From an uncultured Alphaproteobacteria bacterium (GTDB lineage: Bacteria; Pseudomonadota; Alphaproteobacteria; RF32; CAG-239): a stretch of 64,000 bases of DNA. How positions within the stretch are numbered: position 1 is the stretch's first letter; each line of letters opens with the position of its first letter. The DNA lies in NCBI GenBank assembly GCA_944393695.1, contig CALYAY010000010.1:994-64993 (forward strand), given 5' to 3'. This document shows positions 43,862-64,000 of the stretch, piece by piece. The position numbers and the translations under genes were made by a program. The notes below the pieces were generated by a model, which worked only from the letters and a program-made list of their open reading frames with translations, was not told where the DNA came from and searched no databases.

Positions 43862-44625
43862 TGAAAATCACCGTCTTAGGCTCCGGCTCGGCTTATGGAA
43901 CACCAATGATACTCAACCGCTGGGACGGCTCCGATGCCTCCGATTCGCGCAACCGGCGCCTGCGGGCTTCCCTTTTTCTCGAAGACGAAGGCAAAAACCT
44001 GTTGGTCGACGCCGGCCCTGATCTGCGTGAACAGATTAACCGTGAAAATATCAATGATTTCAACGCCGTTTTCATCACCCACGCGCATTATGACCACATC
44101 GGCGGCATTCCCGAGTTGCCCCGCGCCTGCAAACTTCTGGGACACAAAATCGATATTTATGCCTCAGCCGCAACCCTGGAAGAAATCCGCCAATGCTATG
44201 CCTACCTCTTTTCCGGCAGCGGCGAACCCGACAGCGGCAGCCTGAACTGGCACGTCTTAACCGACGAACCGGCTGACATCGGCGGACTGAAAATGGATGT
44301 TTTCTTCGTCCCCCACCACCACATGCAAAGCTGCGGCTTCCGCTACAAAAATTTTGCCTACGTTACCGACTGGCAGGATTTGCCCGCCGCCGCGGCCAAA
44401 AAAATCGATGGAACCGAACTCCTGCTGGCCGAATGCAATAACGGCATGCAACCATCGGCAAACGGACACAGCAGCTGGCCGGAAATTGCTCCCCGGCTCA
44501 CCGGCTTAAACCTGCAACAGATTGTCTTAACCCACCTGGCTGCCAGAGTCGATTATCAGACTTTTCAAAATCAGCTGCCCCCAAATGTCCGGGTTGCCTA
44601 CGACCGCATGGTTATAAATATTTAA
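43861..44625 (+). CDS. Metallo-beta-lactamase-fold hydrolase (PhnP / RNase Z-like subgroup)
   Basis: 'FITHAHYDHIGG' HxHxDH motif. Start overlaps the upstream stop (ATGA). Confidence 0.75.
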   Translation: MKITVLGSGSAYGTPMILNRWDGSDASDSRNRRLRASLFLEDEGKNLLVDAGPDLREQINRENINDFNAVFITHAHYDHIGGIPELPRACKLLGHKIDIYASAATLEEIRQCYAYLFSGSGEPDSGSLNWHVLTDEPADIGGLKMDVFFVPHHHMQSCGFRYKNFAYVTDWQDLPAAAAKKIDGTELLLAECNNGMQPSANGHSSWPEIAPRLTGLNLQQIVLTHLAARVDYQTFQNQLPPNVRVAYDRMVINI

Positions 44626-46109: not shown

Positions 46110-46976
46110 TTATTTTTCAGCAACTTGCAGGTTCTTAGTAATATCTATAAAGAAATCCTTACTCCACATGTCTAATTTATGGGGTTCGACAATAAATGGC
46201 AAAACATCTTGTTTGGCTTGCTCATAATTAATCATCTCAAATCGCTCTTTAAGCATTTCTTGAAGTTTTCCTAATGTCAACGTTTCACCGCTTTTCCAAG
46301 CACCGGAATCTTCCAGCCTTGCCTGCAAATGCGGCAGATTAACCTTTGCCTGCCGTGAGAGATAAAATACATAATCGTATAAATCCCGCCCTTTGACCCG
46401 ATTCCTCCATGAACGGCAAATAACTGCATGAATTTTTCCGGCAAATAAAGATGGCATGTCATAAAGCTTAACCTGATACGGCGACGGCAGCAGGCGGTAT
46501 TTATTTTCAAATTGCGCAAAAGCCGGCGGATTGGTATCAACTTCAAATTTTATTTTTATAACTTCATCAGGATTGATGCCAATATTCTGGATATCATAGA
46601 TATTTAAAATATGCTCTTTGGTATTTCCTTTCAAAAAGGCCGATTTTATAGCTGAATCAACCGTTTTTTGCTTTTCTTCAATCGAAAATTTCAATCCCAG
46701 CGCCGCCAATTCGCTTTCCACACCGGAAAAATAGCGATTAAACTGAAAATCCGGATTAGGCATGACCAATGAAAAATCCAGATCTTCGGAAAACCGGTCA
46801 AGCCCGTAAAAAATACGCAACGCCGTACCGCCGTAAAAAGCCACGTGCTTAAAAAATCCGGCCCGAGACAAACCGCACAAAGCCACTTCTTGCACGACCT
46901 CTTTCAGCGCATTTTTCTTTTCTTCAGTCGTATTTGTTTTGTAATTACCGAGCATCTGCTCCAAAACAGTCTGCAT
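46110..46976 (-). CDS. abiEii: AbiEii/AbiGii-family nucleotidyltransferase toxin (DUF1814), type IV TA system
   Basis: 'HVAFYGGTALRIFYGLDRFSEDLDFS' is the hallmark NTase motif of DUF1814. 288 aa. Its start overlaps the upstream AbiEi stop. Confidence 0.8.
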   Translation of the reverse strand: MQTVLEQMLGNYKTNTTEEKKNALKEVVQEVALCGLSRAGFFKHVAFYGGTALRIFYGLDRFSEDLDFSLVMPNPDFQFNRYFSGVESELAALGLKFSIEEKQKTVDSAIKSAFLKGNTKEHILNIYDIQNIGINPDEVIKIKFEVDTNPPAFAQFENKYRLLPSPYQVKLYDMPSLFAGKIHAVICRSWRNRVKGRDLYDYVFYLSRQAKVNLPHLQARLEDSGAWKSGETLTLGKLQEMLKERFEMINYEQAKQDVLPFIVEPHKLDMWSKDFFIDITKNLQVAEK

Positions 46977-47611
46977 TATTTATTTCTCCTGATTAACTTG
47001 CCTAAAAGTTTGAGATTACTTGCATGATATAACGGAGCCAACTCATTTAAGCTATTCATATTGAGCCTCCAAAATTCCTGCTCATCAATTCGCAAATCAT
47101 CAAATAAAAGAGCATGTAATTCGCTCAAATTTTTAGCCGGCGGCAAAGAATAAAGCTTATCGCACAAAGCTTTTTCAGGAGTAGCAATTTGATAAGAATA
47201 GCCGTTCTCTTCATGCAGCAAAATTCCCAACGGGTAAACTTCAAGCGGAATATCCCTATATGTAAAAATTCCAAAATGATTTTGATACTGCTTTGCTTTT
47301 CTTTTATTGAAAGTTGCCGAAGTATAAGTCCGATAAACCGCCTCGGGAATGAGCGAATACACGGCCAATGCATAATCAAAAGATAAATATGATGGCCCGA
47401 AAATTCTGCCGGCCAGATATTTTCCAGACGTATCTGCATCAGTTTCATAAAGTCCGCGAGCAACCTGTACAAGCCGTCCATCTCTTACTTCCCGCCGGAT
47501 CTTAGCTTTTATATTGCTATAATCATGAAACTTGAGTGTTAAATCATCAAACGAATATATCATATTTCCTCCAGATAGTTCCATAATACAGCACCTTTGG
47601 GAGGAAATCAA
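46976..47611 (-). CDS. abiEi: AbiEi-family antitoxin / transcriptional regulator (type IV TA system)
   Basis: About 200-aa protein directly upstream of and overlapping abiEii. 'RREVRDGRLVQVARGLYE' wHTH-like segment. The true start is probably an internal Met at 47584 or 47563. Confidence 0.65.
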   Translation of the reverse strand: MISSQRCCIMELSGGNMIYSFDDLTLKFHDYSNIKAKIRREVRDGRLVQVARGLYETDADTSGKYLAGRIFGPSYLSFDYALAVYSLIPEAVYRTYTSATFNKRKAKQYQNHFGIFTYRDIPLEVYPLGILLHEENGYSYQIATPEKALCDKLYSLPPAKNLSELHALLFDDLRIDEQEFWRLNMNSLNELAPLYHASNLKLLGKLIRRNK

Positions 47612-48469: not shown

Positions 48470-49870
48470 CTACCTCTCTTTCAAACTCTCATTCAGATAC
48501 TTCATCACCGGAGAGAGGAGATATTCGATGACGCGGCGTTTGCCGGTTTTGATTTCGGCGGTCACGCTCATACCGGGTTTGAGTTGAATAATCTGCCCGT
48601 CCGCTTTGATTTTGTTATCCAAGAGCGTCAGCCGGGCATTAAACACCAAACCGAGTTTCTCGTCCTGTATCGCATCGCCCGAGATATTGCGGACTTTGCC
48701 TTTGATTGTGCCGTATTTGGTGAACGGGAAGCTGTCGATTTTGATTTCCACATCCTGCTCCGGTCGTACAAAGCCGATATCTTTGTTCAAAATCTGCACT
48801 TCCGCCTCAAGTTTATAATCTTCCGGCACCAGGTTCATAATCGGCTTGGCGGTTTCCACCACGCCGCCTTTGGTGTGATAAACCAGCTGCTGCACATAGC
48901 CAGACAGCGGCGCCTTGACCACCGTCCGCTTTAACGCCTCCTGATATTTAATCAGCTCCTGCTGATAAGATTCCAGCTGTTCGCGGTTTTCGGTCAATTC
49001 CTGCATCAGGTCCTTGTCAAACTCGGCCAAATACTGACGCTTTTGCTTTTTCAGCGATTCAATATTTGCTTCGGTCTCCGCCATTTTCTTGACTTGTACG
49101 TTGCGTTGTTCCTGCAGGTTGGTCAGTTCTTCTTCCTGCTCCAGAAAGGTCAGCCGCGCCAGAAGCTTCTTATCCACCAAAATCCGCTTTTTCTCAATCC
49201 GCTCCTCAACGCTCGGCAGCAGTTTCTCAATCCGGTTCAGCTCGGCCTGAATGGTGTCTTTTTCTTTCTCGGCCTTTACGATTTGCCCATCCAGAACTTC
49301 AATCTGGGCTTTTTTCTCAGTCATCTGGCTTTTAAGCAGATCCTTGTGCATTTTAATCAGATATTCGTCAATCTCCGGATTATAACTGAAGTTCGCTTCC
49401 GGATTATCGGTCAGCAGGGCCTTCAGACGGGCAACGGCAATTTCCAGAGCCTCAATCTCGTTTTCCACCCGGCTGATATTGGCCAGCACTTCGGTCTGAT
49501 TAAATTTAATCAAATCCTGCCCTTCTTTCACATATTGCCCCTCTTGCACGTAGATTTCCTCAATCTCGCTGTCGGTCAGGGTCTGGATGGTCTTGATGTT
49601 TGAAGCCGGCATCAGCTTTCCGGCCGAAGTGGCGATAATATCGATTTTGCCCAGGATTGACCACAAAATCAGCACCGTAAACATCAGCATAATAACGTAG
49701 GTCAGCAGCCGCGCGGCATGAGACGGTGGCATCTCGGTTACTTCCAAGACCGCCGGCAGAAACTCTTTCTCATGCTCGTTCATGCCTTTGATTTTGCAGT
49801 CTTTGGCTGCTTTCTCCTGCAAAAGCGCCAGCTTGGCAATATCCCAATATCTTTTAAGTTGTTCCCACAT
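48470..49870 (-). CDS. hlyD: Type I secretion membrane-fusion protein (HlyD family)
   Basis: N-terminal TM, a long coiled coil, and a C-terminal beta-barrel. 466 aa, immediately downstream of hlyB. Confidence 0.85.
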   Translation of the reverse strand: MWEQLKRYWDIAKLALLQEKAAKDCKIKGMNEHEKEFLPAVLEVTEMPPSHAARLLTYVIMLMFTVLILWSILGKIDIIATSAGKLMPASNIKTIQTLTDSEIEEIYVQEGQYVKEGQDLIKFNQTEVLANISRVENEIEALEIAVARLKALLTDNPEANFSYNPEIDEYLIKMHKDLLKSQMTEKKAQIEVLDGQIVKAEKEKDTIQAELNRIEKLLPSVEERIEKKRILVDKKLLARLTFLEQEEELTNLQEQRNVQVKKMAETEANIESLKKQKRQYLAEFDKDLMQELTENREQLESYQQELIKYQEALKRTVVKAPLSGYVQQLVYHTKGGVVETAKPIMNLVPEDYKLEAEVQILNKDIGFVRPEQDVEIKIDSFPFTKYGTIKGKVRNISGDAIQDEKLGLVFNARLTLLDNKIKADGQIIQLKPGMSVTAEIKTGKRRVIEYLLSPVMKYLNESLKER

Positions 49871-49876
49871 TGTCCG

Positions 49877-52036
49877 TCACTCCGCCGCCACTTCATTCGG
49901 CACAATCGGCGCGGTCTGGCTGTTCCACAGATAAGCGTAACGTCCGCCGCGTTTTAACAATTCGTCATGCGTACCGGTTTCGGTAATCTCACCTTTTTCA
50001 ATGGTAATAATCTGGTCGCAGTCCCGCACGGTCGACAGCCGGTGCGCAATCATAAACACCGTCCGCCCCTTGCAGATGGAGGCCATATTCTGCTGAATAA
50101 TCCGTTCGGATTCATAATCAAGCGCCGAGGTTGCCTCGTCAAAAATCAAAATCCGTGGATTGTTAACCAGTGCCCGCGCAATGGCTATTCTTTGCCGCTG
50201 TCCGCCGGATAAAGAGGCGCCGCGTTCTTCAATAATCGTGTCATATCCGTCCGGCAGTTCGGTAATAAACTCATGCGCACCGGCCAGCTTGGCGGCGGCA
50301 ATAATCCTGTCCATCGAAATTGCCGGATTAGTCAGGGCGATATTTTCGCGCACGCTCTTATTAAATAAGTAATTTTCTTGCAACACCACCCCGATTTGAC
50401 GCCGGAGCCATGCCGTATCGACGGTGGAAATATCAATCCCGTCAATCAGCACCTTGCCGCTTTCGGGAATATACAGCCGCTGGATCAGCTTGGTCACGGT
50501 CGATTTGCCCGAGCCGCTCGGCCCGACAAAACCGATTTTCTGCCCGGCTTTGACTTTGAAGTTCATCTTTTTCAAAATCTCCGGACCGTTCGGCACATAA
50601 CGGAACGTAATGTCCTTAAATTCCACGTCGCCTTTAATCTCCGGCATCGAACCTTTGGACAGGGTTTCGGTATTTTCAGCCGGATTGTTGAGAATATCGG
50701 AAAGCTTTTCAATTGAGATTTTCGCCTGCTGGAAATTCTGCCACAACTGCGCCAGGCGTAAAATCGGCTGCGTTACCCGCCCGGACAACATGTTAAAGGC
50801 AATCAGCTGCCCGACCGACAGCTCGCCCTTCATCACCAAACTGGCTCCGATCCATAACGTCAGCGCCATGGTGATTTTTTGCACCAACTGCACGAGCTGT
50901 CCGGCAATATTGTTGATATGCGATGCTCTGAAAGAAGACCCGACATAAGCCGCCAACTGCTGCTCCCACCGCCGCTGCATCTGCGGTTCAACGGCCAAAG
51001 ACTTAACCGTTTCCACACCCGAGACCGCCTCCACCAGAAAGCATTGGTTCTCCGCTCCGCGCTGAAACCGCTCGTCTATCCGCGCCCGCAAAATCGGCGT
51101 AAAGAACAAAGACAGCAACACATAAAACGGAATGGAGAGCAAAACCAGCAGCGTCAGAGTTTTGGAATAAAAGAACATCACCGTAAAAAAGATAATCGTA
51201 AAAAAGAAGTCAATAATCAGGGTTAAGGTCGAACCGGTCAAAAAGTTGCGGATGCTTTCCAGCTCATGCACCCGCGCCACCGTATCACCGACCCGCCGCA
51301 CGCCGAAATAAGACAGCGGCAGCCGGATAAGGTGCTTGAATAAACTTGCGCCCAACTCTACATCAACGCGGGTGGTGGTGTGCGAGAAGGTATAAGTGCG
51401 CAGCCCGCCGAGCAGAGTTTCAAAAATACCGATGCAGATTAACGCTACCATCAACACGTCAAGGCTCGACAACCCGCGGTTAACCAGCACCTTGTCAATC
51501 ACCACCTGAAACAACAACGGCGATACCAGCGCAAACAACTGTAAAAAGAACGAGGCCAGAATAACCTCGCCGAACAGCCTGCGATATTTAACCACCGCCG
51601 GAATAAACCACGAAATGTCAAACTTGCGGTTTTTGCCGTTGATAAACTCACGGCAGGTCATCATCAAGAGCCTGCCGTTCCATCTGTCCATAAATTCTTC
51701 TTTGCTCAAAACCTCGGGGTGGTTGCCTTTGGCGGGATCTTGAATCAAAACTTTGTCCTCAGCAACTTTGCCGAGAATAAAATAAGCCCCGTCTTTGCTT
51801 TGGGCGATTGCCGGCAGCGCCGTCTTGTCCAGCCGTTCCCACTTGGTCTCGACAAAGCGGGCTTTGAATGAAAATTCTTTGGCCAGCTGCAACAATTCAT
51901 ATTCTTCAAAATGCGAATTCTGCCGGTCATATTTATGCTTGATTTGGTCAATCGACACTGGCTTCTCAAAATAATTGGCCATAATCGCAAAACAGGCTAG
52001 CCCGGTGTCAATGTCTTGAAAAGAAGTATTATCCAT
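49877..52036 (-). CDS. hlyB: Type I secretion ABC transporter (HlyB family), with an N-terminal C39-like domain that lacks the catalytic Cys
   Basis: Strong similarity to E. coli HlyB, from memory ('FDISWFIPAVVKYRRLF', 'FLQLFALVSPLLFQVVIDKVLV', 'SYFGVRRVGDTVARVHELESIRNFLTG'). Walker A 'GPSGSGKST', signature 'LSGGQRQRIAIARAL'. Confidence 0.9.
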   Translation of the reverse strand: MDNTSFQDIDTGLACFAIMANYFEKPVSIDQIKHKYDRQNSHFEEYELLQLAKEFSFKARFVETKWERLDKTALPAIAQSKDGAYFILGKVAEDKVLIQDPAKGNHPEVLSKEEFMDRWNGRLLMMTCREFINGKNRKFDISWFIPAVVKYRRLFGEVILASFFLQLFALVSPLLFQVVIDKVLVNRGLSSLDVLMVALICIGIFETLLGGLRTYTFSHTTTRVDVELGASLFKHLIRLPLSYFGVRRVGDTVARVHELESIRNFLTGSTLTLIIDFFFTIIFFTVMFFYSKTLTLLVLLSIPFYVLLSLFFTPILRARIDERFQRGAENQCFLVEAVSGVETVKSLAVEPQMQRRWEQQLAAYVGSSFRASHINNIAGQLVQLVQKITMALTLWIGASLVMKGELSVGQLIAFNMLSGRVTQPILRLAQLWQNFQQAKISIEKLSDILNNPAENTETLSKGSMPEIKGDVEFKDITFRYVPNGPEILKKMNFKVKAGQKIGFVGPSGSGKSTVTKLIQRLYIPESGKVLIDGIDISTVDTAWLRRQIGVVLQENYLFNKSVRENIALTNPAISMDRIIAAAKLAGAHEFITELPDGYDTIIEERGASLSGGQRQRIAIARALVNNPRILIFDEATSALDYESERIIQQNMASICKGRTVFMIAHRLSTVRDCDQIITIEKGEITETGTHDELLKRGGRYAYLWNSQTAPIVPNEVAAE

Positions 52037-52478
52037 GGTTGCTCACAAGTCAGTTGCAAAGCTTTAATGAAAAATATCATAAAGAGAGAAAAGCAAAAAA
52101 TAAAGCAAAAATTTACACTTATTGATAATTAGTTTCCGGCATAAGAATAATCTGAAGTTCTATCCACAGGATCAAAACAAGTATCACTAACGGTTTAAGG
52201 AGAAAACTAACAAAACATTAATAGAACGATAAAAATAAAAAATAATTTCCTTGCATAATTAAAGTTATAGAGTGAAACTTATTACAAAATTACTCTCAGG
52301 GAGTGCAATATGGCGCATAGAAGAGAATCGTGGAATAACGTTTCCCTCACCGGACTACCATCATCTTGCTTGTTTTTAGATGTTTCTCTTAGTGCGCTCC
52401 GGTTAAAATTTCCTTTTTCTCGATTCTTTTTTCTGGTTTTCACCTTTTGTTATCTGCTTTTAAGTTACGCTTTCCAAA

Positions 52479-53483
52479 GTGCTAGTTTGTGGAGTCTTAA
52501 TAATGACGATATCTAATATTTTATTTTTTCTATTCTTACTTCCATTTCTATTTATTTTCAAGTTAGGTGGAACCTATGGTAGCGATGGTCTAGGACAAGC
52601 TTTTTATTTACTCTACTATTACGCTATTGCAATTTGGGGAATAATACTCCTTATTTTACATAAAAATACAAATAAGAAAATAAAATACAATATTTGGGGA
52701 ATAATATTGTTTTTGTTTATTACGTCCCACTATATTACTCTTTGCCGCCATGGGATTAAAGCTTTAGACTATCTATTCCCTCTTATTTTATGGCCTCCAT
52801 TAACAATTCTTTGGATATTAGTAAGAAAATTAAAATTTCGATATTTTTATTTATTATGTTTTGTGGCAGTTCCGATTTTTTTTAGTATAAAAGATTTTAT
52901 AAAAGAACTACAGTTCTCAATGACCTGCGAACAGCAAACACCACCAATACAGTATAACCCGATATATCTGCCAGAAAAATTTTTTCATATGGCCAATGGA
53001 AAGCTTGAGGCTAATATTATTGAAGTTGACGGAAAATATAATGAGAAAAAAGAGTGGATATCATATTTAGATGAACGGTTATATGAAGATTATCATAATC
53101 AAATTCTTGTATACACAAGTTGTTCTGAAATAAGACACATCAAAAATATTTTAAAAAATATTTCTGTAAATAATGTAGTATTATGTCATGACAGATCCAT
53201 AAAAGAAACTTCTTCCGAAGTCCAACAAATTGTTAATACCATAAACCTTGTTAAAGACGGAAACAAAGAACCAATAGTTACAGACATTAGATTGCGTCTT
53301 GCTGCAAAACCCTTTATAGGCAGCTTTCTGGCCAAAAACGGTAAAAAAAACATAACTTTTTGCACTTATTCAGATTATGATCCTCAAAATAACACTCTGT
53401 GGAGAAAGATCAAAACAGATAAATCATATTCAAAATTTATTAAAATTCAAAAAACAACAAAAAACTTGACAGGAGGCCAGTAG
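52479..53483 (+). CDS. Uncharacterised polytopic membrane protein (about 5 N-terminal TM helices plus a ~190-aa soluble C-terminal domain). AT-rich.
   Basis: ORF immediately upstream of the giant RTX gene. The likely start is at 52503 (MTISNILFF). No family recognised. Confidence 0.4.
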   Translation: MLVCGVLIMTISNILFFLFLLPFLFIFKLGGTYGSDGLGQAFYLLYYYAIAIWGIILLILHKNTNKKIKYNIWGIILFLFITSHYITLCRHGIKALDYLFPLILWPPLTILWILVRKLKFRYFYLLCFVAVPIFFSIKDFIKELQFSMTCEQQTPPIQYNPIYLPEKFFHMANGKLEANIIEVDGKYNEKKEWISYLDERLYEDYHNQILVYTSCSEIRHIKNILKNISVNNVVLCHDRSIKETSSEVQQIVNTINLVKDGNKEPIVTDIRLRLAAKPFIGSFLAKNGKKNITFCTYSDYDPQNNTLWRKIKTDKSYSKFIKIQKTTKNLTGGQ

Positions 53484-53549
53484 CAAACATTTATCCACTA
53501 ATCAGTTCATACCACAATTACAATTTTCATCATTCTAAGGAGATTTAAT

Positions 53550-56500
53550 ATGACTACTTTATCCGATTCTTCAACAATCAACATCAGTGATGAGCATAAA
53601 TATGCAATTTTAAGTAAACTGGCATATGAAAATCTTTCTCCAGGAAATATAAACAGTTTAGATAGTGAATTTTCGGAAGTAGAAAAACAATATTTAGAAG
53701 GATATGAAGTATTAGATAAGATATCTTTAAACAATGGCTTTCAAGCTTATTGGTTAAGAGACAAATCTACAAAAGAAATCATTTATACAATTTCAGGGAC
53801 AGACAGTATCTTGGATGGTGGACACCTTGATTTCGGAGATGATATCTCTATCGGAACCTACGGCATGGCAATAGATCAATTTATCTCGGCCTATAATTAT
53901 TATCAGGAGATGACCCATAACAACGGCGATACAATTTATAAAATAGAGAAAAGTTTAAACGCCCCTGAAGATACTGCATATATAGAATCAGAAGAAGGAA
54001 ATTTAACTGTATACTATTTTTTACAAGAAACAACGAACACAAACAGTGCAGGCAATTCATCTTTTGCAAATGCTACATTAACAGGACACTCTCTTGGAGG
54101 ACATTTGGCGGGTTTGTTGTCTAAATTTACAGGGAATCAAGCATATGTTTATAATGCGCCGGGGTATAGTAATTTTTCTGTTGATGGAGCATTCTTGGAT
54201 TTAAGCTTTGTAACAGCAGATGGCGATTCTTCCTACTATTTATCTTATGTAAATGCATTTGCTTCCTTATTTAATAAAGATTTTGGGGATAATAATGTTA
54301 CACACATTCATACAGCAAATGGTTGGGATTGGGTTGCAGGAATAAATGATGATAAATGGTCTAAAAGTGATATTTATACTTTATATACAGGGCTTGACCC
54401 TCGAGATTACCATAGTATCAATGGAATATGCACGGCCTATTACGCTTATGAAACAATTAAAGATATTGCTAATGGAGCGGAAAGTTTTCACAACGATAGC
54501 ACGATAACTTCATTTAATGAAACATTTGAAAACGTTTACAAAGCCTATTGTCTAAATAAGGGAGAAGCCTATCAAGAGCTTGATTATTCAGAATATGCAA
54601 ATATCAATCAGATTATTTCTGACATTAATGAATGGTCAGAGACACAAAAAGCAAATGGAGGAGTAATTAAAGTCGATTCCTTTAACCATTCTACCTCTCT
54701 ACCAATAACTGGAACTGGCGGTGCAGATATATTCTATACCGGTGGCGGCAATGATACCGTAGATGCCGGAGCTGGAAACGATATTGTATATGGAATAGAC
54801 TTGAATGGAGATAATTCAGCCGCGGCATCCTCTACGAAAACTATAGATCTTGGTGCCGGTAATGACAAATATTATGGTTCAAACGCAAAAGACAACATTA
54901 ATTGTGGTACTGGACGAGATTATGTTGATGCAGGCTCAGGAGAAAACTATATCGATTTAGGTGCAGATAACGATAAAGATACCGTCATTATCAACAACAA
55001 CGCTTCTGGCGTAGATACAATTGTTAATTTTACATCTCAAGATGAAATCAACTGTATCGGAGGTTTTAATATCTCTTCGCTACAACAAATCGGAAATGAT
55101 ATGATAATTTATGGAAACAACGGAAACAAAATCGTATTCAAAGATGCCGTTGAAAAAAATTCAATGCCGATGCTAGTACAAAACAATGACACATTATTAT
55201 ACTGGGAAAATGGAAAATACAACGAAATAAAATATAATCCTTATGCTATGGAAAATCCGACAGAAGAACATATTTGTGCATTATTGAGTAAATTGGCATA
55301 CGAAGATTTAACAGTTGGATTTAATTTTGATAACCTGAGTAAAGACAGATTCGCTCCGGCTGAAATAGCCTATATAAAAGAGAATTTTGATGTTATAAAT
55401 GTCAAAAATGATATAGAAACAGGATTTTTCGGATGTTTTTTGAAAAATAAAAAAACAGGAAAAATTTATAATGCCATAAGAGGAATAGATAGTAATTCTC
55501 TTGATGAGAAAGATATCATTGCGGATAACGAAATCAGAAACAAAGGTATGGCAATTGAACAGTTTATTGCTGCTTATAATTATTACATTGAAGTTATGAC
55601 ACCTAGCGGAAGTGTGTCCAACAAAATTGTGTATAGTTCGCAAAAGCCGGAAGGTGAAACAAACTGTGTCGAAGATAAAACAGCAGGAAGATACTATTAT
55701 CTCAGACCTTGGAGCGGAACGTCTACTCTAGGCAATAATACCGAAATTATCATTACAGGGCATTCACTTGGCGGACATTTAGCAGGTTTAGTTGCAAAAT
55801 GTGTTGATAATCAAGCAATTGTTTTTAATGCCCCTGCCTATGGAGCTGTTAAACAACAAAGTAAAATAAATTATATTGCAGATAACGGTTATGTCTATCA
55901 AAATATAAATAGTCACTATCTAGCAATTATAACAAGAATGCTTGAAGGCATCAGTTCAAATTCCAATATACATGCTATATATAGTAATGACTATTCAGAA
56001 TTTGCAGATAATATATATAGTTTATGGTCGATAGAGAAAAGTCTTAATACCATTGCTTCCCAATCAAATCCATTATCTCAAAGCAGTATAAATGCAATAA
56101 GTGACACGTATTATATTTATAACACGATAAAAGGAATAATAAGTGGTCCAGATATTTTTAACAATAAAGAAAATATAACCATTGAAACAGCTTTTGACAA
56201 CGTTTATCAAGCATATTTACTAGCTCATGAAAAAGAAAATATTACAATACCTTACGAAAATTCATCTCAAATTAAGGAGTTTGCAGATGAAATTGCAATA
56301 TGGCGTCAAAAATACTCGGAATATAATATATTAATAGATATAAAGAATCAAGATTCAACAAAATCAGCTTCAATAAGAGCAGAAGATGGAAATAATTTGA
56401 TATTTATTAAGAATGGGAAAAATAGTGTTACCTTAGGAACAGGAAATGATATCGTGTATGCAACCAATATTGATAAAGAAATTGGTACACAAGAAACCGT

Positions 56501-59453
56501 TTCTCCAGATAATCGAGTGTATTTAGGAGCCGGAAACGACATTTTTTATGGCTTCAACGGGAATGATGTCATTGACGGCGGAAACGATAAAGATGCAGAA
56601 ACTGATAAAAATATAATTTATCTAGGAGCCGGAGATGACGACTACAATGGTGGGGATGGAGTTGACATTGTCGATGGTGGTTCTGGAAATACCGGAAACT
56701 TGAATAAAAATATTTATGGTAACCTGGAATATTTTATGACAGATTCTGAAACTAATATAAATGATGTTAAATTAGAGGGAGGTAATGATGTATACATTGG
56801 AGGAAAGGGCTCAGATGAAGTAGATACTACCTGGGGTAATGATATTATTCTAACCGGCAAAGGAGATGATTATATTTACACTGATTTTTTTGATTCGAGA
56901 GATACAGATAAAAAGATTATCTATTTAGGAGAAGGAAGCGACAAATTTAATGGAGGAGCGGGAGATGATATAGTCGATGGAGGTTCTGGAACTAAATATA
57001 TATTTGGTAATGATAACGATCAATATTTTGAAACATTCACCCAAGAAATGTTATTAGATAATGAAAATGATGTAAATACAATTAATCTTGGAGCAGGAAA
57101 TAATATATACATAGGAGGTACGGGAATAGACAACTTAATTTCCAGAAATAATGCAGGAGAAAAAAATCATATCTGGTTGGGGGCTGGAAATGATACTTAT
57201 GACGGAGGAAACGGAGACGATATAGTTGATGGAGGCTCCGGAACAATAGGAGAATTGTCTAATGTTTTGCCTTTTATTAACATTCCTGAAGATATATTGA
57301 AGGACAGCCCAGAAGATACAAATACAATTAATTTAGGTCATGGAAATAATATTTATTATGGCGGGGCTGGAATAGATGTTGTGACCAGTGGTAATGGAAA
57401 TGATATCATTCAAGGAGGAAAAGGTAATGATATCTTGAACGGAGGTTCTGGTAACGATACTTATATTTATAACAGCGGAGATGGTTTTGATGAAATAACT
57501 GATACCTATGGAACAAATGAAATTGTTTTGGGTGAAGGGGTGCAGAGAGAGAATATAACGGCTGAATCTATAGCATCAAACAAAATCAAATTATATTTTG
57601 ATAACAATTTACAAGAAGGCATTAGTTTTGAAGGAAACCTTTCTTCAACAAATTTAGTGTTTGCAGATAATACATCTGTAAAAATTTCAGATGCAGGTTT
57701 CATTTTCAAACAACAAGATACAAATGAGAATATAACAGGAACCAAAGGAAATGATATTTTCTATGGAAATGGCGGAGATGATATAATTAACGGAGATGCA
57801 GGAGATGATATTTATATTTGGAATTTGGGAGATGGACTAGATACAATTAAAGATAAAAAAGGAAACAATATAATAAGGTTTGGAAAAGGAATAAAACTTT
57901 CAGATTTATCTTTTTCTCAAAATAATAGAGACTTGACGATAAATGTAAAAGGAAATGCTTCTGAAGGAATAACAATAAAGGAATATTTTATTGATCCAAT
58001 TAGCTCTTTAGACACAATCATACTAGAAGATGAACAACAAACATACCAAATTAATAATCTTAATATTGAAATAGATCACCCTCAAACAACGGAAGATACT
58101 CCTATTTATAGCACAAATGGGAATAATATTCTACATAATGCTCCAGGAAATAATGTAGTTTATTTAAATAATGGTAGTAACACTTTTCTTTGGAATATTG
58201 GTGATGGTATGGATATCCTCAGATTTGACGATTGCAATACTGGTGGAAAATGCAGTATTAAATTTGGTCCAGGAATTAGTGCTGAAGATTTATATTTCTC
58301 AACTATTGGAAAAAATGGAGTTGACTGGGATTATACAGATTTAAAGATATCTGTAAAAGGAAATGAAAATCAAGGAATCATTTTAGATGAATTTTTTGAT
58401 AAAAAAGTAATTAATCGTTTAGAAAAAATAATTTTTGATAATGGTGACGAACTGGCTTTAACCGATATAAAAATACATACGGCTTCTTTTAATGGTTCAG
58501 ATTATAATGACATTATCCATTATACTGATGGGATATACGCTAGTCATGGTTATGAGGGGAACGATGAAATGCACGGAGGGGATTCTGAAGACCAACTGGA
58601 TGGAGGAAATGGTGATGATTATTTATATGGATATAAATCCAATGACTTTTTAGTGGGAGGGGCCGGAGATGATACATATATCTGGAATCTAGGAGATGGA
58701 ATGGATACAATTTCTGATACTGATGATAATATAGGTGATACAATTTCCTTTGGTTCGGGAATTACATTCGAAGATTTAAAATTTATTGGAGATTTTGACG
58801 GATTAAGAATAATTATCAAAAATGACGAAACGCAAGGAATATTTATTCGTAATCAAATGCAATATGGAGATGTCAGAAGTTTAGATGAAAAAGCAGGAAT
58901 TGAATACCTGAAATTTAATGATGGAAGTACTGTTAATATAAAAGAAATAGGATTAAATCTTTATACTACAGAAGGAAGAAGCATTGATGGTTCTCCTTTT
59001 GATGATATAATTAATGGAGCCGAAAATGCAACATTAAAAGGCGGAGCCGGAAATGATACATATACCTACAATTTGGGTATGGGAGATTGTTCAATTGATG
59101 ATACTTCTGGTGAGAATGATAAAATTAAATTTGGAGAAGGAATAAGTTTAGATCAATTAAGTTATCGCACATATAGAGACAATCTAAATATCTCAATTGG
59201 TGATGGTAACAATAATATCACAATAAATAATTACTTTAGCACTAAAGAAAATTACCAGGGAAAAATTGAAACTTTAGAATTTGCTGATGGTTCTCAAATA
59301 AGTACCGATGCTGCTTTACAGCTGATTCAGGCGATGAACTCTTTTGGAGCCGACACGTCTTCAACAATGGATGCATTGTCCAATCCGACAGAAAATGTCA
59401 GCGATATGTGTAATCTCGCTGCCGGCTCGGATTTGATAAAGAAAGCAATCTAG
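53550..59453 (+). CDS. Giant (1967 aa) T1SS-type secreted protein with two tandem lipase-family-I.3-like alpha/beta-hydrolase domains, each followed by RTX GGxGxD nonapeptide beta-roll repeats, and a long C-terminal array of repeated beta-roll modules
   Basis: AAGGAG RBS. Domain 1 'YAILSKLAYENL...IYTISGTD...LTGHSLGGHLAGLLSKF'. Domain 2 at about aa 575 'CALLSKLAYEDL...NAIRGID...ITGHSLGGHLAGLVAKC'. More than 30 'GGAGNDxxxG' repeats. Recurrent 'GxGIxxxDLxFxxxxxDLxI' modules. No Cys-rich regions. Acidic C-terminus. Confidence 0.85.
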   Translation: MTTLSDSSTINISDEHKYAILSKLAYENLSPGNINSLDSEFSEVEKQYLEGYEVLDKISLNNGFQAYWLRDKSTKEIIYTISGTDSILDGGHLDFGDDISIGTYGMAIDQFISAYNYYQEMTHNNGDTIYKIEKSLNAPEDTAYIESEEGNLTVYYFLQETTNTNSAGNSSFANATLTGHSLGGHLAGLLSKFTGNQAYVYNAPGYSNFSVDGAFLDLSFVTADGDSSYYLSYVNAFASLFNKDFGDNNVTHIHTANGWDWVAGINDDKWSKSDIYTLYTGLDPRDYHSINGICTAYYAYETIKDIANGAESFHNDSTITSFNETFENVYKAYCLNKGEAYQELDYSEYANINQIISDINEWSETQKANGGVIKVDSFNHSTSLPITGTGGADIFYTGGGNDTVDAGAGNDIVYGIDLNGDNSAAASSTKTIDLGAGNDKYYGSNAKDNINCGTGRDYVDAGSGENYIDLGADNDKDTVIINNNASGVDTIVNFTSQDEINCIGGFNISSLQQIGNDMIIYGNNGNKIVFKDAVEKNSMPMLVQNNDTLLYWENGKYNEIKYNPYAMENPTEEHICALLSKLAYEDLTVGFNFDNLSKDRFAPAEIAYIKENFDVINVKNDIETGFFGCFLKNKKTGKIYNAIRGIDSNSLDEKDIIADNEIRNKGMAIEQFIAAYNYYIEVMTPSGSVSNKIVYSSQKPEGETNCVEDKTAGRYYYLRPWSGTSTLGNNTEIIITGHSLGGHLAGLVAKCVDNQAIVFNAPAYGAVKQQSKINYIADNGYVYQNINSHYLAIITRMLEGISSNSNIHAIYSNDYSEFADNIYSLWSIEKSLNTIASQSNPLSQSSINAISDTYYIYNTIKGIISGPDIFNNKENITIETAFDNVYQAYLLAHEKENITIPYENSSQIKEFADEIAIWRQKYSEYNILIDIKNQDSTKSASIRAEDGNNLIFIKNGKNSVTLGTGNDIVYATNIDKEIGTQETVSPDNRVYLGAGNDIFYGFNGNDVIDGGNDKDAETDKNIIYLGAGDDDYNGGDGVDIVDGGSGNTGNLNKNIYGNLEYFMTDSETNINDVKLEGGNDVYIGGKGSDEVDTTWGNDIILTGKGDDYIYTDFFDSRDTDKKIIYLGEGSDKFNGGAGDDIVDGGSGTKYIFGNDNDQYFETFTQEMLLDNENDVNTINLGAGNNIYIGGTGIDNLISRNNAGEKNHIWLGAGNDTYDGGNGDDIVDGGSGTIGELSNVLPFINIPEDILKDSPEDTNTINLGHGNNIYYGGAGIDVVTSGNGNDIIQGGKGNDILNGGSGNDTYIYNSGDGFDEITDTYGTNEIVLGEGVQRENITAESIASNKIKLYFDNNLQEGISFEGNLSSTNLVFADNTSVKISDAGFIFKQQDTNENITGTKGNDIFYGNGGDDIINGDAGDDIYIWNLGDGLDTIKDKKGNNIIRFGKGIKLSDLSFSQNNRDLTINVKGNASEGITIKEYFIDPISSLDTIILEDEQQTYQINNLNIEIDHPQTTEDTPIYSTNGNNILHNAPGNNVVYLNNGSNTFLWNIGDGMDILRFDDCNTGGKCSIKFGPGISAEDLYFSTIGKNGVDWDYTDLKISVKGNENQGIILDEFFDKKVINRLEKIIFDNGDELALTDIKIHTASFNGSDYNDIIHYTDGIYASHGYEGNDEMHGGDSEDQLDGGNGDDYLYGYKSNDFLVGGAGDDTYIWNLGDGMDTISDTDDNIGDTISFGSGITFEDLKFIGDFDGLRIIIKNDETQGIFIRNQMQYGDVRSLDEKAGIEYLKFNDGSTVNIKEIGLNLYTTEGRSIDGSPFDDIINGAENATLKGGAGNDTYTYNLGMGDCSIDDTSGENDKIKFGEGISLDQLSYRTYRDNLNISIGDGNNNITINNYFSTKENYQGKIETLEFADGSQISTDAALQLIQAMNSFGADTSSTMDALSNPTENVSDMCNLAAGSDLIKKAI

Positions 59454-59463
59454 TCAATCAAAC

Positions 59464-59503
59464 ATTATCCGGTTATCAAGTTCTTTCTTGATAACCGGAT
59501 AAT
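59464..59503. repeat. Perfect 17-bp inverted repeat (ATTATCCGGTTATCAAG-ttcttt-CTTGATAACCGGATAAT) directly after the giant gene stop
   Basis: Read directly in the sequence. Not followed by a T-run. Confidence 0.7.
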
Positions 59504-59529
59504 CCCAAATCTAAAAAGGAAAAAAATTA

Positions 59530-60222
59530 ATGACCAAAAATAACAAATCAATAAAAGATAAAAGTATTGCTGTCAAAACAAACTTTTTTACACAAGTATG
59601 GAAAAATTTGCGTGAATATCCGCTAGAAGTTGTTTTATATTTTTCTTTTTTTCTTCTTACATTATTTTCCTCTAAAGCCAATCATCTTTTTCTTTTTCCC
59701 TCGATACATCAGATTTTGTCAATCTTAATTGCGGGAATCTTTATCTTTTTTATATTAAAATATAAGAAAAGTTTTTTTGATAAAAATTTTTTCTACGTTT
59801 TTATTCTTCTTCACATTATTTTCTCGATTCTTCTTATTTATAATATGTATAGTGTAAAAATTAGAGGGATTAATTTCTTTTTCTTTCCTGCATTTGCCTG
59901 CTTCATGTATTTATTATCCCTCTTTAAATGGTATTCTAAGCAATTTGTAGTTAAAGTTTCGAATTATATATTTCTTCTGTATATTGTAGGAATAATAATA
60001 GCATTCTCTGTAAATTCTTTTTTTAGTGGAATTTTATTTCTTTTTATCTGTGACTATTATGCTATTTTTATGCTTTTATTTTTAATATTTTCTTCTCCAA
60101 ACGAAAATTCAGATGAATTAAAAAATTTTCAATCTGTTTGTCTGTTTATCTTTGGAGGCATTTCATACCCCTTAGTCTTCTTATATTTGACACCATTGGT
60201 AGCAAATATGATTTCCGAATAA
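59530..60222 (+). CDS. Uncharacterised Phe-rich polytopic membrane protein (about 6 TM helices). AT-rich.
   Basis: ORF between the two RTX genes, AAAGGA RBS, extremely hydrophobic. Confidence 0.4.
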   Translation: MTKNNKSIKDKSIAVKTNFFTQVWKNLREYPLEVVLYFSFFLLTLFSSKANHLFLFPSIHQILSILIAGIFIFFILKYKKSFFDKNFFYVFILLHIIFSILLIYNMYSVKIRGINFFFFPAFACFMYLLSLFKWYSKQFVVKVSNYIFLLYIVGIIIAFSVNSFFSGILFLFICDYYAIFMLLFLIFSSPNENSDELKNFQSVCLFIFGGISYPLVFLYLTPLVANMISE

Positions 60223-60245
60223 TAAAACTTTAGAGGAGAAAATCT

Positions 60246-63200
60246 ATGATAAGCTATTCATTAAAAATGCATTCATATAATGTTTATGGTACGAATGGTT
60301 CTGTAATTGCTCGTCATACAGGGTATAACCTTGTAGTTACAGATGACAATGGAAATGCAACCATTTATGGAGTAGATTTAGGGCCGGACGTAAATAATCC
60401 AGATAAAGCGTATATTTCTATAACAGAATCTACTGCTAAAAAGTTTATTTTTGTCAACAAAGAAAATCCAAATATTACACAAGAAGCTTATTGGGCTTCT
60501 GATACGACACAAGAAGATATTAACAAGTATGAATTTTATAATTCTGAAGAGTTGGCCTCTGGAGATGAGGCTCTAGAAGCATTTAACAAGATCAAATTAG
60601 AGGCAGCTTTAACAAATCTTGTTAATCAAATTGATTATGAACTAGGAATCCCATGGATTGATAATGGCCGAGTTTGTAATACAGCAACAAATTATTGGGG
60701 ATTGGAATATATTCCAAATTTTGATTCAAGTATTTACAATGATTTACCATCAAATGGTGAAGTCGGTTATTGGGGACACAATGATGACTATATAAATGCG
60801 GCAAACTATGAGCAAGCCCAAAAATTAAAATTTATTAATAATATTGTGGAACAACTTAGTCAATTAAATGCTATCGATGACATTTTAACAGACAACTATC
60901 CTTTTATTTCAGAAAAATACTTACAAATTTTACAGCCTTATTTAGAACGTGATTTTTTATATAAAGGAGAAGATATAACAGATATACTGACTAGTATTGT
61001 TATTGGTACATTACCTTTATCTAATGTAATAAATCTTAGTTACGATATAAAAGATAGCATTCGGGAAGCATATACTACAGCCGAAATCACCCGTTCACCT
61101 TTAGTAATTGACTTGGACGGGAATGGAATTGAAACCAATAAAGAAAATTCCACAGTTCATTTTGACCATGATAATAATGGTTTTGCAGAAAGCACAGGCT
61201 GGGTTGGCAAAGATGATGGTTTACTGGTTCGGGATTTGAACAATAATGGAGAGATTGATAATGGAACGGAGTTGTTTGGCAATAACTCCGTTCTTTCGTC
61301 TGGAGAAAAAGCAGCCAACGGGTTTGAGGCTTTAGCTGATTTAGACAGCAACGGAGATAATATCTTTAATAACCAAGATGAAGCCTGGAATCAGGTAAAA
61401 GTCTGGCAAGACGCCAATAGCAACGGTGTCGTTGATGAGGGAGAATTACTTACATTAGAGCAAGCTAATGTATCAGGAATTAATCTGGATTACAACTCTT
61501 CTTCAACAACCGATGAAAACGGCAATCAACACAATCAAACCGGTACATTCATCAAAACAGACGGCACAACCGGTTCAATTCACGATGTCTGGTTTGACGC
61601 CGATTATGCCGATACAATAGATAAAACAGAAATAACAATTTCCGATGATATTGCGGTTCTTCCCAATATTTCAGGCTTTGGCAATGTGCACGATTTGCAT
61701 ACGGCAATGGCTTTGGACACTTCTGGTGAATTAAAAAACTTGGTTCAGCAATATGCTACTGAAACAAATGTGGATAATAGACAAGAAATTCTGACTAACA
61801 TCATTTATCATTGGGCTGGTGTTCAAGATATGAATCCTAACGGACGAAATCCATCTTTGATATATGGTAATGTTTTGGGAGATTCTCGTAAATTGGAAGT
61901 ACTTGAAGAATTTATGGGAGAGGATTACTTGGGAACCTGGTGTTGGGGAGAACGGGACCCAAACCCGCATGGGCCGGCAGCTCCCTTTATTTTACAAGCT
62001 TTTGAAGATCTAAAAAATTATATTAATCACCAACTTCTGTCTCAAACACATTATAAATCTTTATTAGAAAGTATTATTCTAACATATAATGAAGAAACAA
62101 AGCAATGGACAGCAAATATTGATACTGCGATAACGATATTGAAAGATATTTATCAGAAAGATAACGAACAAGGATTAAATACTTTAAAAGAATTTTCAGG
62201 CTTGGTAACTAATAATTTTGCTTCAATAGCAGATATTGTTGTGAATGAATTTAAAAGTAAAGGAAATGCAGAAGGAGATCTTTTTACTTCAGAACTTTTA
62301 AATTTTGGAAATTACGTATTCGTAGCAACAGATGGAAATGATATTTTAAATGGAACAGAAGGAGCCAATTATCTAGACGGATATGCCGGAAATGATAATC
62401 TATATGGAAATAATGGCAATGATGTTCTTGTTGGAGGAGAAGGTAATGACTACCTAAACGGAGGAAATGGCGCAGATATATATAAATTTGAAATAGGTTT
62501 TGGTAATGATACAATTGATAATTCAGATAATAACGCTTCAAAAGAAGAACCAGACATTATTCAATTCGGAGAAGGTATATTACCGTCCAAAACAACTTTA
62601 GGGAGACAAGGTTTCGATTTAATTATTACAGTTTCCTATAATCCGGATGAAGAAGGTAATGTCAGAGAAGATGATTCTGTCCGAGTTTACAGCTATTTTG
62701 ATAAGCAAGGAACAGCTAGTGCTACAGTTGATTTTATTCAATTTGCCGACGGCACAAGTTGGGATTATGAATATGTTATAACTCATTGGAACAGCGTTCC
62801 TGACGTAAATGGCGGAAAAACATTCGAAGGAGATAATAATTTCAACACACTCAATGGAACAGCATACAATGATATTTTAATTGGCAATGGTGGAAATGAT
62901 GTTATTGACGGAGGAAATGGAAATGATCGTTTACTTGGAGGGACTGGTAATGATTATCTAGAAGGAGGATATGGAGATGATGTCTATCTATGGAATCTTG
63001 GTGACGGGATAGATACAATTGAAGATAAAGGAAATCATGATAAAATTTCTTTTGGAGATGGAATAACTTTTAACGATCTGACTTTCCAATGCACTAATGA
63101 AAATGATTTAAAAATATTTATAAAAGACAATGAGGGCCAAGGCGTTATAATCAAAAAATTTTTCTCCAGTTCAAATTATAAGATTGAAGAATTAATTTTT

Positions 63201-64000
63201 TCTAATGGTACTCAGGTTCACTTATCTGAAATTGGTTTGGTATTAAAACAGCTTTCATCTGATGAAATTATTAACAGTACTGACTTCGATGATATTATCT
63301 ATGGTAATGGTGGTAATGATACAATCCACAGCTATGACGGTGATGATGTTATTTATGCTGAGGGAGGCAATGATTACGTTTCAGGTTACGCCGGAGATGA
63401 TATTATCTATGGTGGTGATGGTAATGATACAATTTATGGAGAGAGCCGCCACCGGATTTATGACGAAGATGTCGGCACCGGAAACGATACTTTAATCGGA
63501 GGGAAAGGTGATGATTACCTCCGGGGTGGAAAAGGGAATGACATTTATATTTATAATCTCGGAGACGGGTCTGACACCATCAACGATGCCAACGGTCAGG
63601 ATACACTCAAATTCGGAGAGGGAATAAGTTTTGATGATTTGAAATTTACTCAAACCGGAGACGGAGAAAAAGATTTTTATATGACAATAAAAAATGATCA
63701 AAAACTTCTTCTTCAAGATTTAACAGATACATCCCGGGGAATTGATATTTTAGAATTTGCAGATGGTTCCAGTTTCAATGTAAAAGAAAATGGATTAACT
63801 TATTCTCAAACTGATGAAGATGAAACGATAGTTGCTTCCGATTTTGATGATATTATTTATGCTGAGGGAGGCAATGATTACGTTTCAGGTTACGTTGGAG
63901 ACGATATTATCTATGGTGGTGACGGTAATGATACAATTTATGGAGAGAGCCGCCACCGGATTTATGACGAAGATGTCGGCACCGGAAACGATACTTTAAT
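60246..64000 (+). CDS. Second large RTX-repeat protein (more than 1250 aa; the 3' end lies beyond the window). Novel N-terminal ~700-aa domain with EF-hand-like DxDxNG loops, then RTX nonapeptide repeats and duplicated ~168-aa modules.
   Basis: GGAG RBS then the ATG at 60246. Open in frame to the window end. 'LVIDLDGNGIETN', 'DLNNNGEIDNGTELFG', 'DLDSNGDNI', 'DANSNGVVDEGEL' loops. 'GGEGNDYLNGGNGADIY', 'GNGGNDVIDGGNGNDRLLGGTGNDYLEGGYGDD' RTX repeats. Confidence 0.8.
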   Translation, partial: MISYSLKMHSYNVYGTNGSVIARHTGYNLVVTDDNGNATIYGVDLGPDVNNPDKAYISITESTAKKFIFVNKENPNITQEAYWASDTTQEDINKYEFYNSEELASGDEALEAFNKIKLEAALTNLVNQIDYELGIPWIDNGRVCNTATNYWGLEYIPNFDSSIYNDLPSNGEVGYWGHNDDYINAANYEQAQKLKFINNIVEQLSQLNAIDDILTDNYPFISEKYLQILQPYLERDFLYKGEDITDILTSIVIGTLPLSNVINLSYDIKDSIREAYTTAEITRSPLVIDLDGNGIETNKENSTVHFDHDNNGFAESTGWVGKDDGLLVRDLNNNGEIDNGTELFGNNSVLSSGEKAANGFEALADLDSNGDNIFNNQDEAWNQVKVWQDANSNGVVDEGELLTLEQANVSGINLDYNSSSTTDENGNQHNQTGTFIKTDGTTGSIHDVWFDADYADTIDKTEITISDDIAVLPNISGFGNVHDLHTAMALDTSGELKNLVQQYATETNVDNRQEILTNIIYHWAGVQDMNPNGRNPSLIYGNVLGDSRKLEVLEEFMGEDYLGTWCWGERDPNPHGPAAPFILQAFEDLKNYINHQLLSQTHYKSLLESIILTYNEETKQWTANIDTAITILKDIYQKDNEQGLNTLKEFSGLVTNNFASIADIVVNEFKSKGNAEGDLFTSELLNFGNYVFVATDGNDILNGTEGANYLDGYAGNDNLYGNNGNDVLVGGEGNDYLNGGNGADIYKFEIGFGNDTIDNSDNNASKEEPDIIQFGEGILPSKTTLGRQGFDLIITVSYNPDEEGNVREDDSVRVYSYFDKQGTASATVDFIQFADGTSWDYEYVITHWNSVPDVNGGKTFEGDNNFNTLNGTAYNDILIGNGGNDVIDGGNGNDRLLGGTGNDYLEGGYGDDVYLWNLGDGIDTIEDKGNHDKISFGDGITFNDLTFQCTNENDLKIFIKDNEGQGVIIKKFFSSSNYKIEELIFSNGTQVHLSEIGLVLKQLSSDEIINSTDFDDIIYGNGGNDTIHSYDGDDVIYAEGGNDYVSGYAGDDIIYGGDGNDTIYGESRHRIYDEDVGTGNDTLIGGKGDDYLRGGKGNDIYIYNLGDGSDTINDANGQDTLKFGEGISFDDLKFTQTGDGEKDFYMTIKNDQKLLLQDLTDTSRGIDILEFADGSSFNVKENGLTYSQTDEDETIVASDFDDIIYAEGGNDYVSGYVGDDIIYGGDGNDTIYGESRHRIYDEDVGTGNDTL
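63351..64000 (+). repeat. Intragenic tandem duplication: an ~150-nt near-identical segment (4 mismatches) repeated with a 504-bp period (63351-63500 and 63855-64000)
   Basis: 'atttatgctgagggaggcaatgattacgtttcaggttacg..ggaga.gatattatctatggtggtga.ggtaatgatacaatttatggagagagccgccaccggatttatgacgaagatgtcggcaccggaaacgatactttaat' occurs twice. The second copy is cut by the window edge. Confidence 0.85.

Follow-up and report, generated by a model that had tools for sequence, protein, structure and literature searches.

Family I.3 lipases, such as PML of Pseudomonas sp. MIS38 and LipA of Serratia marcescens (PDB 2QUA), join an alpha/beta-hydrolase domain to RTX repeats and are exported by a type I secretion system (T1SS). 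They are recognized by a VTLVG motif, a C-terminal DGIVA motif, the absence of cysteines, and a length of ~617 aa (PMC7745013). Other reference points for lipase-fold proteins are Tle of Enterobacter cloacae ("Tle6" group, PDB 7UBZ and 9CYS), an effector of type VI secretion (T6SS) with a C-terminal lipase domain and a periplasmic ankyrin-repeat immunity protein encoded downstream, and the eukaryotic class-3 lipases and plant phospholipases A1 (Rhizomucor miehei lipase; CaPLA1, PDB 7X0D), together with EDS1, PAD4, and SAG101. Here we analyze a gene found in a 64,000-nucleotide stretch of DNA (hereafter the window; contig CALYAY010000010.1) from an uncultured alphaproteobacterium, which encodes a giant protein with two paralogous lipase-fold heads and a long RTX body. 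Only the first head keeps the full set of conserved catalytic residues, and the second is probably a pseudo-lipase; the gene lies beside T1SS genes and directly behind a conserved membrane-protein gene, orf326. The original prediction, made from the sequence alone, had seen in this gene a bivalent lipase or phospholipase with two catalytic domains of the T1SS-secreted family I.3 type, possibly a toxin or a surface-retained enzyme.

Architecture of the two-headed protein

In the list of open reading frames (ORFs), the gene occupies 53550..59453 (+), stop codon included, starting with ATG and encoding 1967 aa, exactly as first described. The identical protein, with unchanged neighbors, is present on seven independent metagenome or genome contigs, and the giant ORF is therefore not an assembly artifact. 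Two class-3-lipase-fold domains, their limits set by a family hidden Markov model (HMM), stand in tandem: head 1 at aa 1-375 (53550..54674) and head 2 at aa 565-931 (55242..56342). Both open with the predicted shared LSKLAYE segment (aa 21 and aa 579) and carry GHSLGG (aa 179 and aa 737).

The remainder of the protein consists largely of repeats, which we mapped by masked sliding-window self-BLAST. Between the heads (aa ~385-555; 54702..55214) lies a degenerate RTX-like block, which at aa ~385-500 has 33-38% identity to the later RTX blocks, followed by a cap-like segment that continues to aa ~555; in the relatives P0002, P0004, and P0005, Pfam HemolysinCabind matches the equivalent region. 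Head 2 is followed by an RTX nonapeptide block of three ~85-aa units (aa ~950-1300; 56397..57449) and by five modules of ~120-130 aa, each an RTX turn with an HCBP_related-like beta segment (aa ~1284-1920; 57399..59309). Pfam reports HemolysinCabind in nine stretches of the giant protein (E=1.3e-31) and HCBP_related at aa 1878-1919, and a regular-expression search finds 12 canonical GGxGxDxUx cores, from aa 1034 on. An RTX block behind each head, as predicted, is thus present, and the ~1000 aa of beta-roll modules proposed to follow the second head are borne out by Pfam and the internal repeats. The final ~47 aa (59310..59450), free of repeats and located after the last RTX module, presumably form an uncleaved secretion signal, as C-terminal tails of RTX proteins do for T1SS export; the tail of the orthologue P0009 is nearly identical.

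When aa 1-560 were compared with aa 561-1200 by BLAST, head 1 (aa 11-457) aligned with head 2 (aa 569-1015) at 33% identity over 462 columns (E=3e-55). The proposed tandem duplication of the lipase-fold module is genuine and far beyond chance, and the duplicated unit comprises the head together with the start of the repeats that follow. This two-head plan is new; when the 150 representatives of the head family with the best scores were examined, it was found in only three clusters at 50% identity.

Family assignment of the heads

The giant protein shares with family I.3 lipases the overall plan of alpha/beta-hydrolase, RTX repeats, and T1SS. Of a Ser-Asp-His triad with a GXSXG nucleophile, head 1 has the Ser, the His, and a tentative acid, and head 2 has the Ser but not the His. 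The protein differs from family I.3 lipases in its length and second head, in its conserved membrane partner gene, and in its cassette and array organization. No I.3 lipase structure was matched by sequence with head 1, head 2, or a profile of 31 family sequences, even at E<=10; moreover, the sequence of the giant protein contains neither VTLVG nor DGIVA and has 12 Cys. The absence of sequence homology in the catalytic domain and of the family hallmarks rules out family I.3, and the assignment to the PML/LipA type has to be abandoned.

The heads instead belong to a large family that became apparent with an exhaustive profile search, which at E<=1e-3 returned 3198 representative clusters, 835 of them with E<=1e-10; a word-indexed search with head 1 alone gave only six relatives. 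The family domain is nearly always located at the extreme N-terminus, in proteins of 300-4100 aa that are annotated in public databases almost throughout as "hypothetical." RTX repeats occur in 73 of 79 long family representatives and in 68 of 77 long ORFs of the family loci, and 35 of 78 loci have an HlyB-like ATP-binding cassette (ABC) transporter gene within 8 kb. The head of the giant protein matches the Pfam Lipase_3 profile above the gathering score. A precomputed label, PF26363 ("Phospholipase-like"), is faint for the giant protein and unmarked for many relatives, and our own Pfam scan of the giant protein gave no PF26363 match.

Structural comparison points in the same direction as Lipase_3. 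An AlphaFold (AF2) model of head 1 (pLDDT 81.5, pTM 0.85) returned only two significant families in Foldseek, Yarrowia Lip2 and the E. cloacae Tle (9CYS_A; E=1.2e-4, TM 0.38-0.49). Tle is also the best PDB sequence match of the family profile (7UBZ_B, E=1.1e-5), in an alignment confined to ~55 residues around the Ser elbow, where the two share GHSLGG-LA and a downstream fNA-G motif. The Ser-to-His spacing in head 1, 107 residues, equals that in Tle, whose triad is Ser/Glu/His. The fold of the heads is that of class-3 lipases, and their nearest characterized relative appears to be Tle, an antibacterial phospholipase A1/A2 effector. Sequence and model together thus indicate lipase/phospholipase-fold domains of a separate family, which stands nearer to Tle-type effectors than to I.3 lipases.

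The resemblance to Tle concerns the domain rather than the system. Here the lipase domain is N-terminal, fused to RTX repeats, and associated with a T1SS, and the partner protein is a polytopic, or in most relatives two-helix, Cys-paired membrane protein encoded upstream. Neither ankyrin nor T6SS genes are found in the part of the window from 40 to 64 kb, where the neighbors are T1SS genes and transmembrane (TM) proteins without Pfam matches. Identity to the eukaryotic class-3 lipases and to the EDS1/PAD4/SAG101 group is 13-21%, and the heads differ from these in their bacterial, RTX-fused, T1SS-secreted context. A literature search, limited in reach, returned no description of T1SS/RTX lipase-immunity systems or of PF26363; the head family and its conserved membrane partner are so far uncharacterized.

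Catalytic residues in the two heads

We read the conservation of the catalytic site from an alignment of 80 full-length family heads and assigned the putative triad from conservation and the order of secondary-structure elements. In head 1, Ser181 (54090-54092) is conserved in 100% of the heads, within a G-H-S-L-G-G-H-L-A elbow that is essentially invariant. Thr84 of the RGT motif, the oxyanion-hole position in class-3 lipases, is conserved in 95%, and His288 (54411-54413) in 96% (77/80). In the model, Ser181 sits at the strand-helix elbow that follows strand 176-180, and His288 comes between strand 271-275 and a long helix that begins directly behind it, so that the predicted order of Ser and His is the canonical one of class-3 lipases. 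For the acid, the candidate is Asp260 (54327-54329); it follows strand 250-255 at a distance of five residues, and its "D-hydrophobic-V" surroundings resemble the class-3 "D-I-V-P" motif; the corresponding residue in head 2 is Glu817. Head 1 is thus predicted to be the catalytic module, a phospholipase or lipase.

This conservation also bears on the idea that the protein stays on the cell surface as an adhesin or matrix component, with its lipase-like heads serving mainly to bind. Such a role would suit the very long, repetitive beta-roll body, and Pfam gives a weak, below-threshold match to a BapA prefix-like domain at aa 507-554. However, Pfam searches of the giant protein and its neighbors found no LapA-type N-terminal retention module and no LapG or LapD genes, and the retention in head 1 of all conserved catalytic positions favors catalysis; we consider an adhesin very improbable.

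The second head presents a different picture. It retains the GHS739LGGHLA elbow (Ser739 codon at 55764-55766) and the NAP motif. The position of the conserved His is occupied by Ser845 (56082-56084), and Ile646 (55485-55487) replaces the oxyanion-motif Thr (RGT to RGI). No alternative His was found near Ser845. Only three of the 80 heads lack the His, and each is the second head of a two-headed protein; the residue is Ser in the giant protein and Gln in P0008 and P0009, in which the elbow is also changed, to GTSLGG and GNSLGG. This consistent loss of the catalytic His in second heads is a new observation. Loss of the catalytic Ser or His in either head had been named beforehand as the outcome that would speak against a bivalent lipase, and the His is what head 2 has lost; a bivalent enzyme is therefore unlikely. 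Of the two catalytic domains first proposed, both are lipase-fold heads, and a full catalytic set is found in head 1 only.

Head 2 has not decayed along with its catalytic site. Its identity to the two-headed orthologues is 43-44%, as compared with 44-47% for head 1. P0008 and P0009 share 73% identity in head 2 and 51% in head 1, and the inter-head region, at 78% identity between two-headed orthologues, exceeds either head. Since head 2 is conserved between orthologues like head 1, it appears to be maintained under purifying selection, probably as a pseudo-lipase that keeps the fold and the Ser739 elbow. Pseudo-lipases of class-3 fold are known from the EDS1/PAD4/SAG101 group. Because the His has been lost while conservation is retained, the most likely role for head 2 is non-catalytic, perhaps in binding of lipid or target, or in regulation. 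Purifying selection, an elbow preserved in full (GHSLGGHLAGL), the NAP motif, and an acidic residue (Glu817) in the column of the candidate acid would also suit a head 2 that is active in a non-canonical manner, by a Ser-acid dyad or with a base supplied from elsewhere, for instance by head 1 or the RTX linker, making the protein truly bivalent after all. That seems improbable to us, as the His is replaced in all three orthologues, the elbow His is changed in two of them, and the oxyanion Thr is lost in the giant protein; as a rule, an alpha/beta-hydrolase that lacks its triad His is inactive.

Conservation within head 1 is itself uneven. Among first heads of the gut clade, the C-terminal helical subdomain (aa 281-375) is 74-93% identical and the N-terminal and middle parts 32-53%, a mosaic that hints at recombination or at differing constraints.

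An upstream partner gene and its cassettes

Immediately upstream of the giant gene is orf326 (52503..53483, +, with the ATG at 52503 chosen by gene callers; the ORF list has a GTG start at 52479). Hydropathy and alignment indicate five predicted TM helices followed by a soluble domain of ~190 aa, and four invariant Cys. Homologs are found immediately upstream of the lipase-RTX gene in three loci from gut Alphaproteobacteria (L009, L008, and L006), and the variant locus L003 contains a paralog. In L003, an additional cassette remnant lies between the ABC gene and orf326 (7066-8830), composed of this 376-aa orf326 paralog and a 186-aa truncated head ORF; it looks like an orphan partner with a decayed toxin.

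To place this pair in context, all 78 genomic loci recovered for the head family were surveyed. The head gene is nearly always preceded by an ORF of ~180-260 aa; 82 of 91 such upstream ORFs constitute one homologous family, and the orf326 clade constitutes a second. The general partner, of ~200 aa, has two N-terminal TM helices joined by a K/R-rich loop. It also contains the motif D-x8-C-x2-aG-x2-Y, and two of its cysteines are nearly invariant (99% and 98%). Neither it nor orf326 has a Pfam match. In orf326, two basic loops, HKNTNKKIK and VRKLKFRY, are predicted to be cytoplasmic from the topology as read by hand. With the Cys pairs and the K/R-rich loop of the general family, these loops lead us to predict that the soluble domain of the partner is extracytoplasmic.

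Partner and head genes are nearly always translationally coupled, with a median gap of 3 nt between partner stop and head start, a gap of <=20 nt in 57 of 70 cases, and overlap in 27 of 70. Of 55 loci, 12 have at least two cassettes in tandem, and an intact partner is retained beside 16 truncated head ORFs. Arrays of up to five units, each a ~200-aa, two-TM, two-Cys partner followed by a head-RTX gene, are found in L039, L016, L029, L049, and other loci, in Beta-, Gamma-, and Deltaproteobacteria that include Ca. Thiodiazotropha symbionts. The family thus displays the features of polymorphic toxin/immunity systems: a variable head, a tightly linked partner gene, arrays, and orphan modules. The coupling, tandem arrays, orphan partners, and fast-diverging heads, together with the foreign composition of the cargo genes (below), suggest that the family consists of T1SS-delivered phospholipase toxins with immunity proteins, and for the giant protein the toxin reading remains viable.

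These loci are harder to reconcile with a nutritional extracellular lipase or esterase, I.3- or polyurethanase-like, that would act on dietary or host lipids with orf326 as a Lif-like foldase or export accessory. The catalytic domain has no I.3 homology and lacks the I.3 hallmarks, and neither divergent head/partner arrays nor truncated heads with intact partners would be expected for a housekeeping lipase. Furthermore, T1SS substrates skip the periplasm, the compartment in which a Lif-like foldase would work, and a body of 1000-4000 aa goes far beyond what digestion would require. We regard this explanation as unlikely, though it deserves to be kept in mind.

Export genes and genomic setting

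The predicted T1SS context is evident from the genes upstream, which are divergent from the giant gene. An ABC transporter of the HlyB type with an N-terminal C39-like domain is encoded at 49877..52036 (-) (Pfam Peptidase_C39, ABC_membrane, and ABC_tran), and a membrane-fusion protein of the HlyD family at 48470..49870 (-) (Pfam HlyD_3 and HlyD_D23; AprE/CyaD-type labels). The transporter reads IDTGL, against IDYGL in HlyB, and presumably lacks the C39 catalytic Cys, as RTX exporters do. With these genes adjoining, and with nonapeptide repeats ahead of a predicted C-terminal signal, the giant protein is, by its sequence and gene context, evidently a T1SS substrate. The transporter belongs to a 90%-identity cluster of 1663 members, whereas the giant protein is alone in its own cluster; the exporter is conserved and the cargo variable.

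Base composition separates the two as well. At ~52 kb, GC content falls from ~48% (49-50% in the T1SS genes) to ~33% over the cargo at ~52000-64000, a low-GC block that contains, in order, orf326, the two-headed gene, orf230, and RTX2. A related locus from a metagenome-assembled genome (MAG), L006 (6922-10460), has a like contrast of 33% vs 46-49%. The contrast in both loci suggests that the cargo cassette has been exchanged horizontally beside a resident exporter. The remainder of the window is ordinary chromosome (AspRS, MsbA, CptA, HydG, UvrA). Just beyond the T1SS genes, we noted an AbiEi/AbiEii-type toxin-antitoxin pair (46110-47611, -) and a metallo-beta-lactamase-fold protein labeled as Anti-Pycsar Apyc1-like (43861-44625, +), and the region accordingly looks like a defense/competition island.

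The loci closest to that of the window come from MAGs of gut Alphaproteobacteria, and the names in the HydG cluster agree with an alphaproteobacterial host. DNA uptake sequences of Neisseria and Kingella, looked for as a further clue to the host, are absent. A gut source, the phospholipase-type fold of the head, and the classical targeting of hosts by RTX giants might all be taken to indicate a host-directed cytotoxin, that is, an RTX phospholipase acting on gut epithelial or protist membranes, with the partner guarding the envelope of the producer. Such a cytotoxin would leave unexplained the abundance of the head/partner cassette in free-living sediment and groundwater Proteobacteria and in sulfur-oxidizing symbionts. 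In addition, Pfam detects no pore-forming hydrophobic domain and no HlyC-type acyltransferase gene in the giant protein and its neighbors, and a dedicated partner that co-diversifies in arrays better fits kin protection in bacterial antagonism. We judge host targeting to be quite unlikely.

Neighboring genes

Downstream of the giant gene, in the 76 nt that separate it from orf230, lies a perfect 17-bp inverted repeat, ATTATCCGGTTATCAAG...CTTGATAACCGGATAAT (59464-59503), which starts 11 nt past the stop codon; termination, attenuation, or stabilization of the mRNA by a hairpin are possible roles. A promoter scan of 51900-60400 was uninformative, as matches did not outnumber those in shuffled sequences.

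The next gene, orf230 (59530..60222, +), encodes a membrane protein with six TM helices according to hydropathy and without a Pfam match, the position of which is kept in L001-L004. It ends 23 nt upstream of RTX2 (60246..64000, +), the second large RTX gene of the low-GC cassette, which encodes at least 1251 aa and runs off the window. By this arrangement, orf230 may be a second partner or immunity gene, serving RTX2 and mirroring the pairing of orf326 with the two-headed gene.

RTX2 has an N-terminal domain of ~260 aa of no recognized kind, a Ca2+-dependent self-processing module (SPM) of the FrpC type (E=4e-44 against PDB 6SJW), and RTX modules; its body of RTX and HCBP_related modules is common to the two-headed protein. 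Where FrpC has its scissile Asp, ahead of the conserved Pro, RTX2 has Ser ("TRS-PLVIDLDGNGIET"), and its autocleavage may therefore be lost or altered. The FrpC/ApxIVA-type SPM is likewise found inside other head-bearing giants (L030, L024, and L009). The two-headed protein differs from these relatives and from RTX2 in having no SPM, and its heads are therefore presumably not clipped off.

Proposed function

Taken with the observed architecture, homology, residue losses, and gene linkage, a mainly antibacterial toxin/immunity cassette, composed of a T1SS-exported RTX giant with a phospholipase in head 1 and a pseudo-lipase in head 2 and of orf326 as the immunity protein, is the explanation we favor, at about even confidence. 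For the parts that we infer, namely enzymatic activity, target, immunity, and the role of head 2, it would operate as follows. The protein would be exported C-terminus first through the adjacent HlyB/HlyD, as family and gene context suggest, and its beta-roll modules would fold outside the cell upon binding Ca2+, a mode of folding established for RTX proteins in general. Head 1 would then hydrolyze membrane phospholipids, probably at the sn-1 or sn-2 position, judging from its fold and the likeness to Tle. Head 2, which would have arisen by internal duplication of a head with its RTX block, would contribute its non-catalytic binding or regulatory function, and orf326, acting from the periplasmic side, may shield the producer as well as its kin.

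Several points weigh against this proposal. The weakest link is delivery: a T1SS releases its substrates outside the cell, and no route into the periplasm of a target is known for the family. The acid of the head 1 triad is insecure, as no more than 62% of the heads have Asp or Glu in the Asp260 column, and columns 256-258 and 228 are competing candidates. The relation of orf326 to the general partner family is weak (hhalign probability 48%, through the post-TM Cys motif), its structure model, from a five-sequence alignment, is unusable (pLDDT 41, pTM 0.27), and in the window it is separated from the head gene by a gap of 66 nt, with no overlap. A putative immunity gene upstream is also the reverse of the order in most polymorphic-toxin loci, and a partner anchored in the membrane might just as well serve as a foldase or an export accessory.

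A more far-reaching version of the toxin/immunity proposal, which we put forward tentatively and think doubtful as a whole, is that these loci represent a widespread and so far unrecognized class of T1SS antibacterial phospholipase effectors, in which an N-terminal toxin domain precedes an RTX/beta-roll delivery body, a translationally coupled upstream gene encodes a membrane immunity protein that faces the periplasm, and the cassettes form polymorphic arrays, and that in the gut clade one duplicated copy is now a conserved pseudo-lipase. That copy may have taken on a new role, for instance in binding a target membrane or receptor, or as an immunity decoy.

Significance

To our knowledge, RTX lipases have been treated as simple secreted enzymes, and the T1SS has rarely been considered a route for interbacterial toxins. 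If the proposal is true, the antibacterial effectors known for the T1SS would gain a large class, with more than 3000 representative clusters across the Proteobacteria and members in gut commensals as well as in chemosynthetic symbionts. For the protein itself, the attractive annotation as a bivalent I.3 lipase proves wrong and is corrected here. The two-headed protein offers a clear natural example of how, within one polypeptide, a catalytic domain was duplicated and one copy became a conserved, probable pseudo-enzyme, and as such should be useful for asking what non-catalytic lipase folds do.

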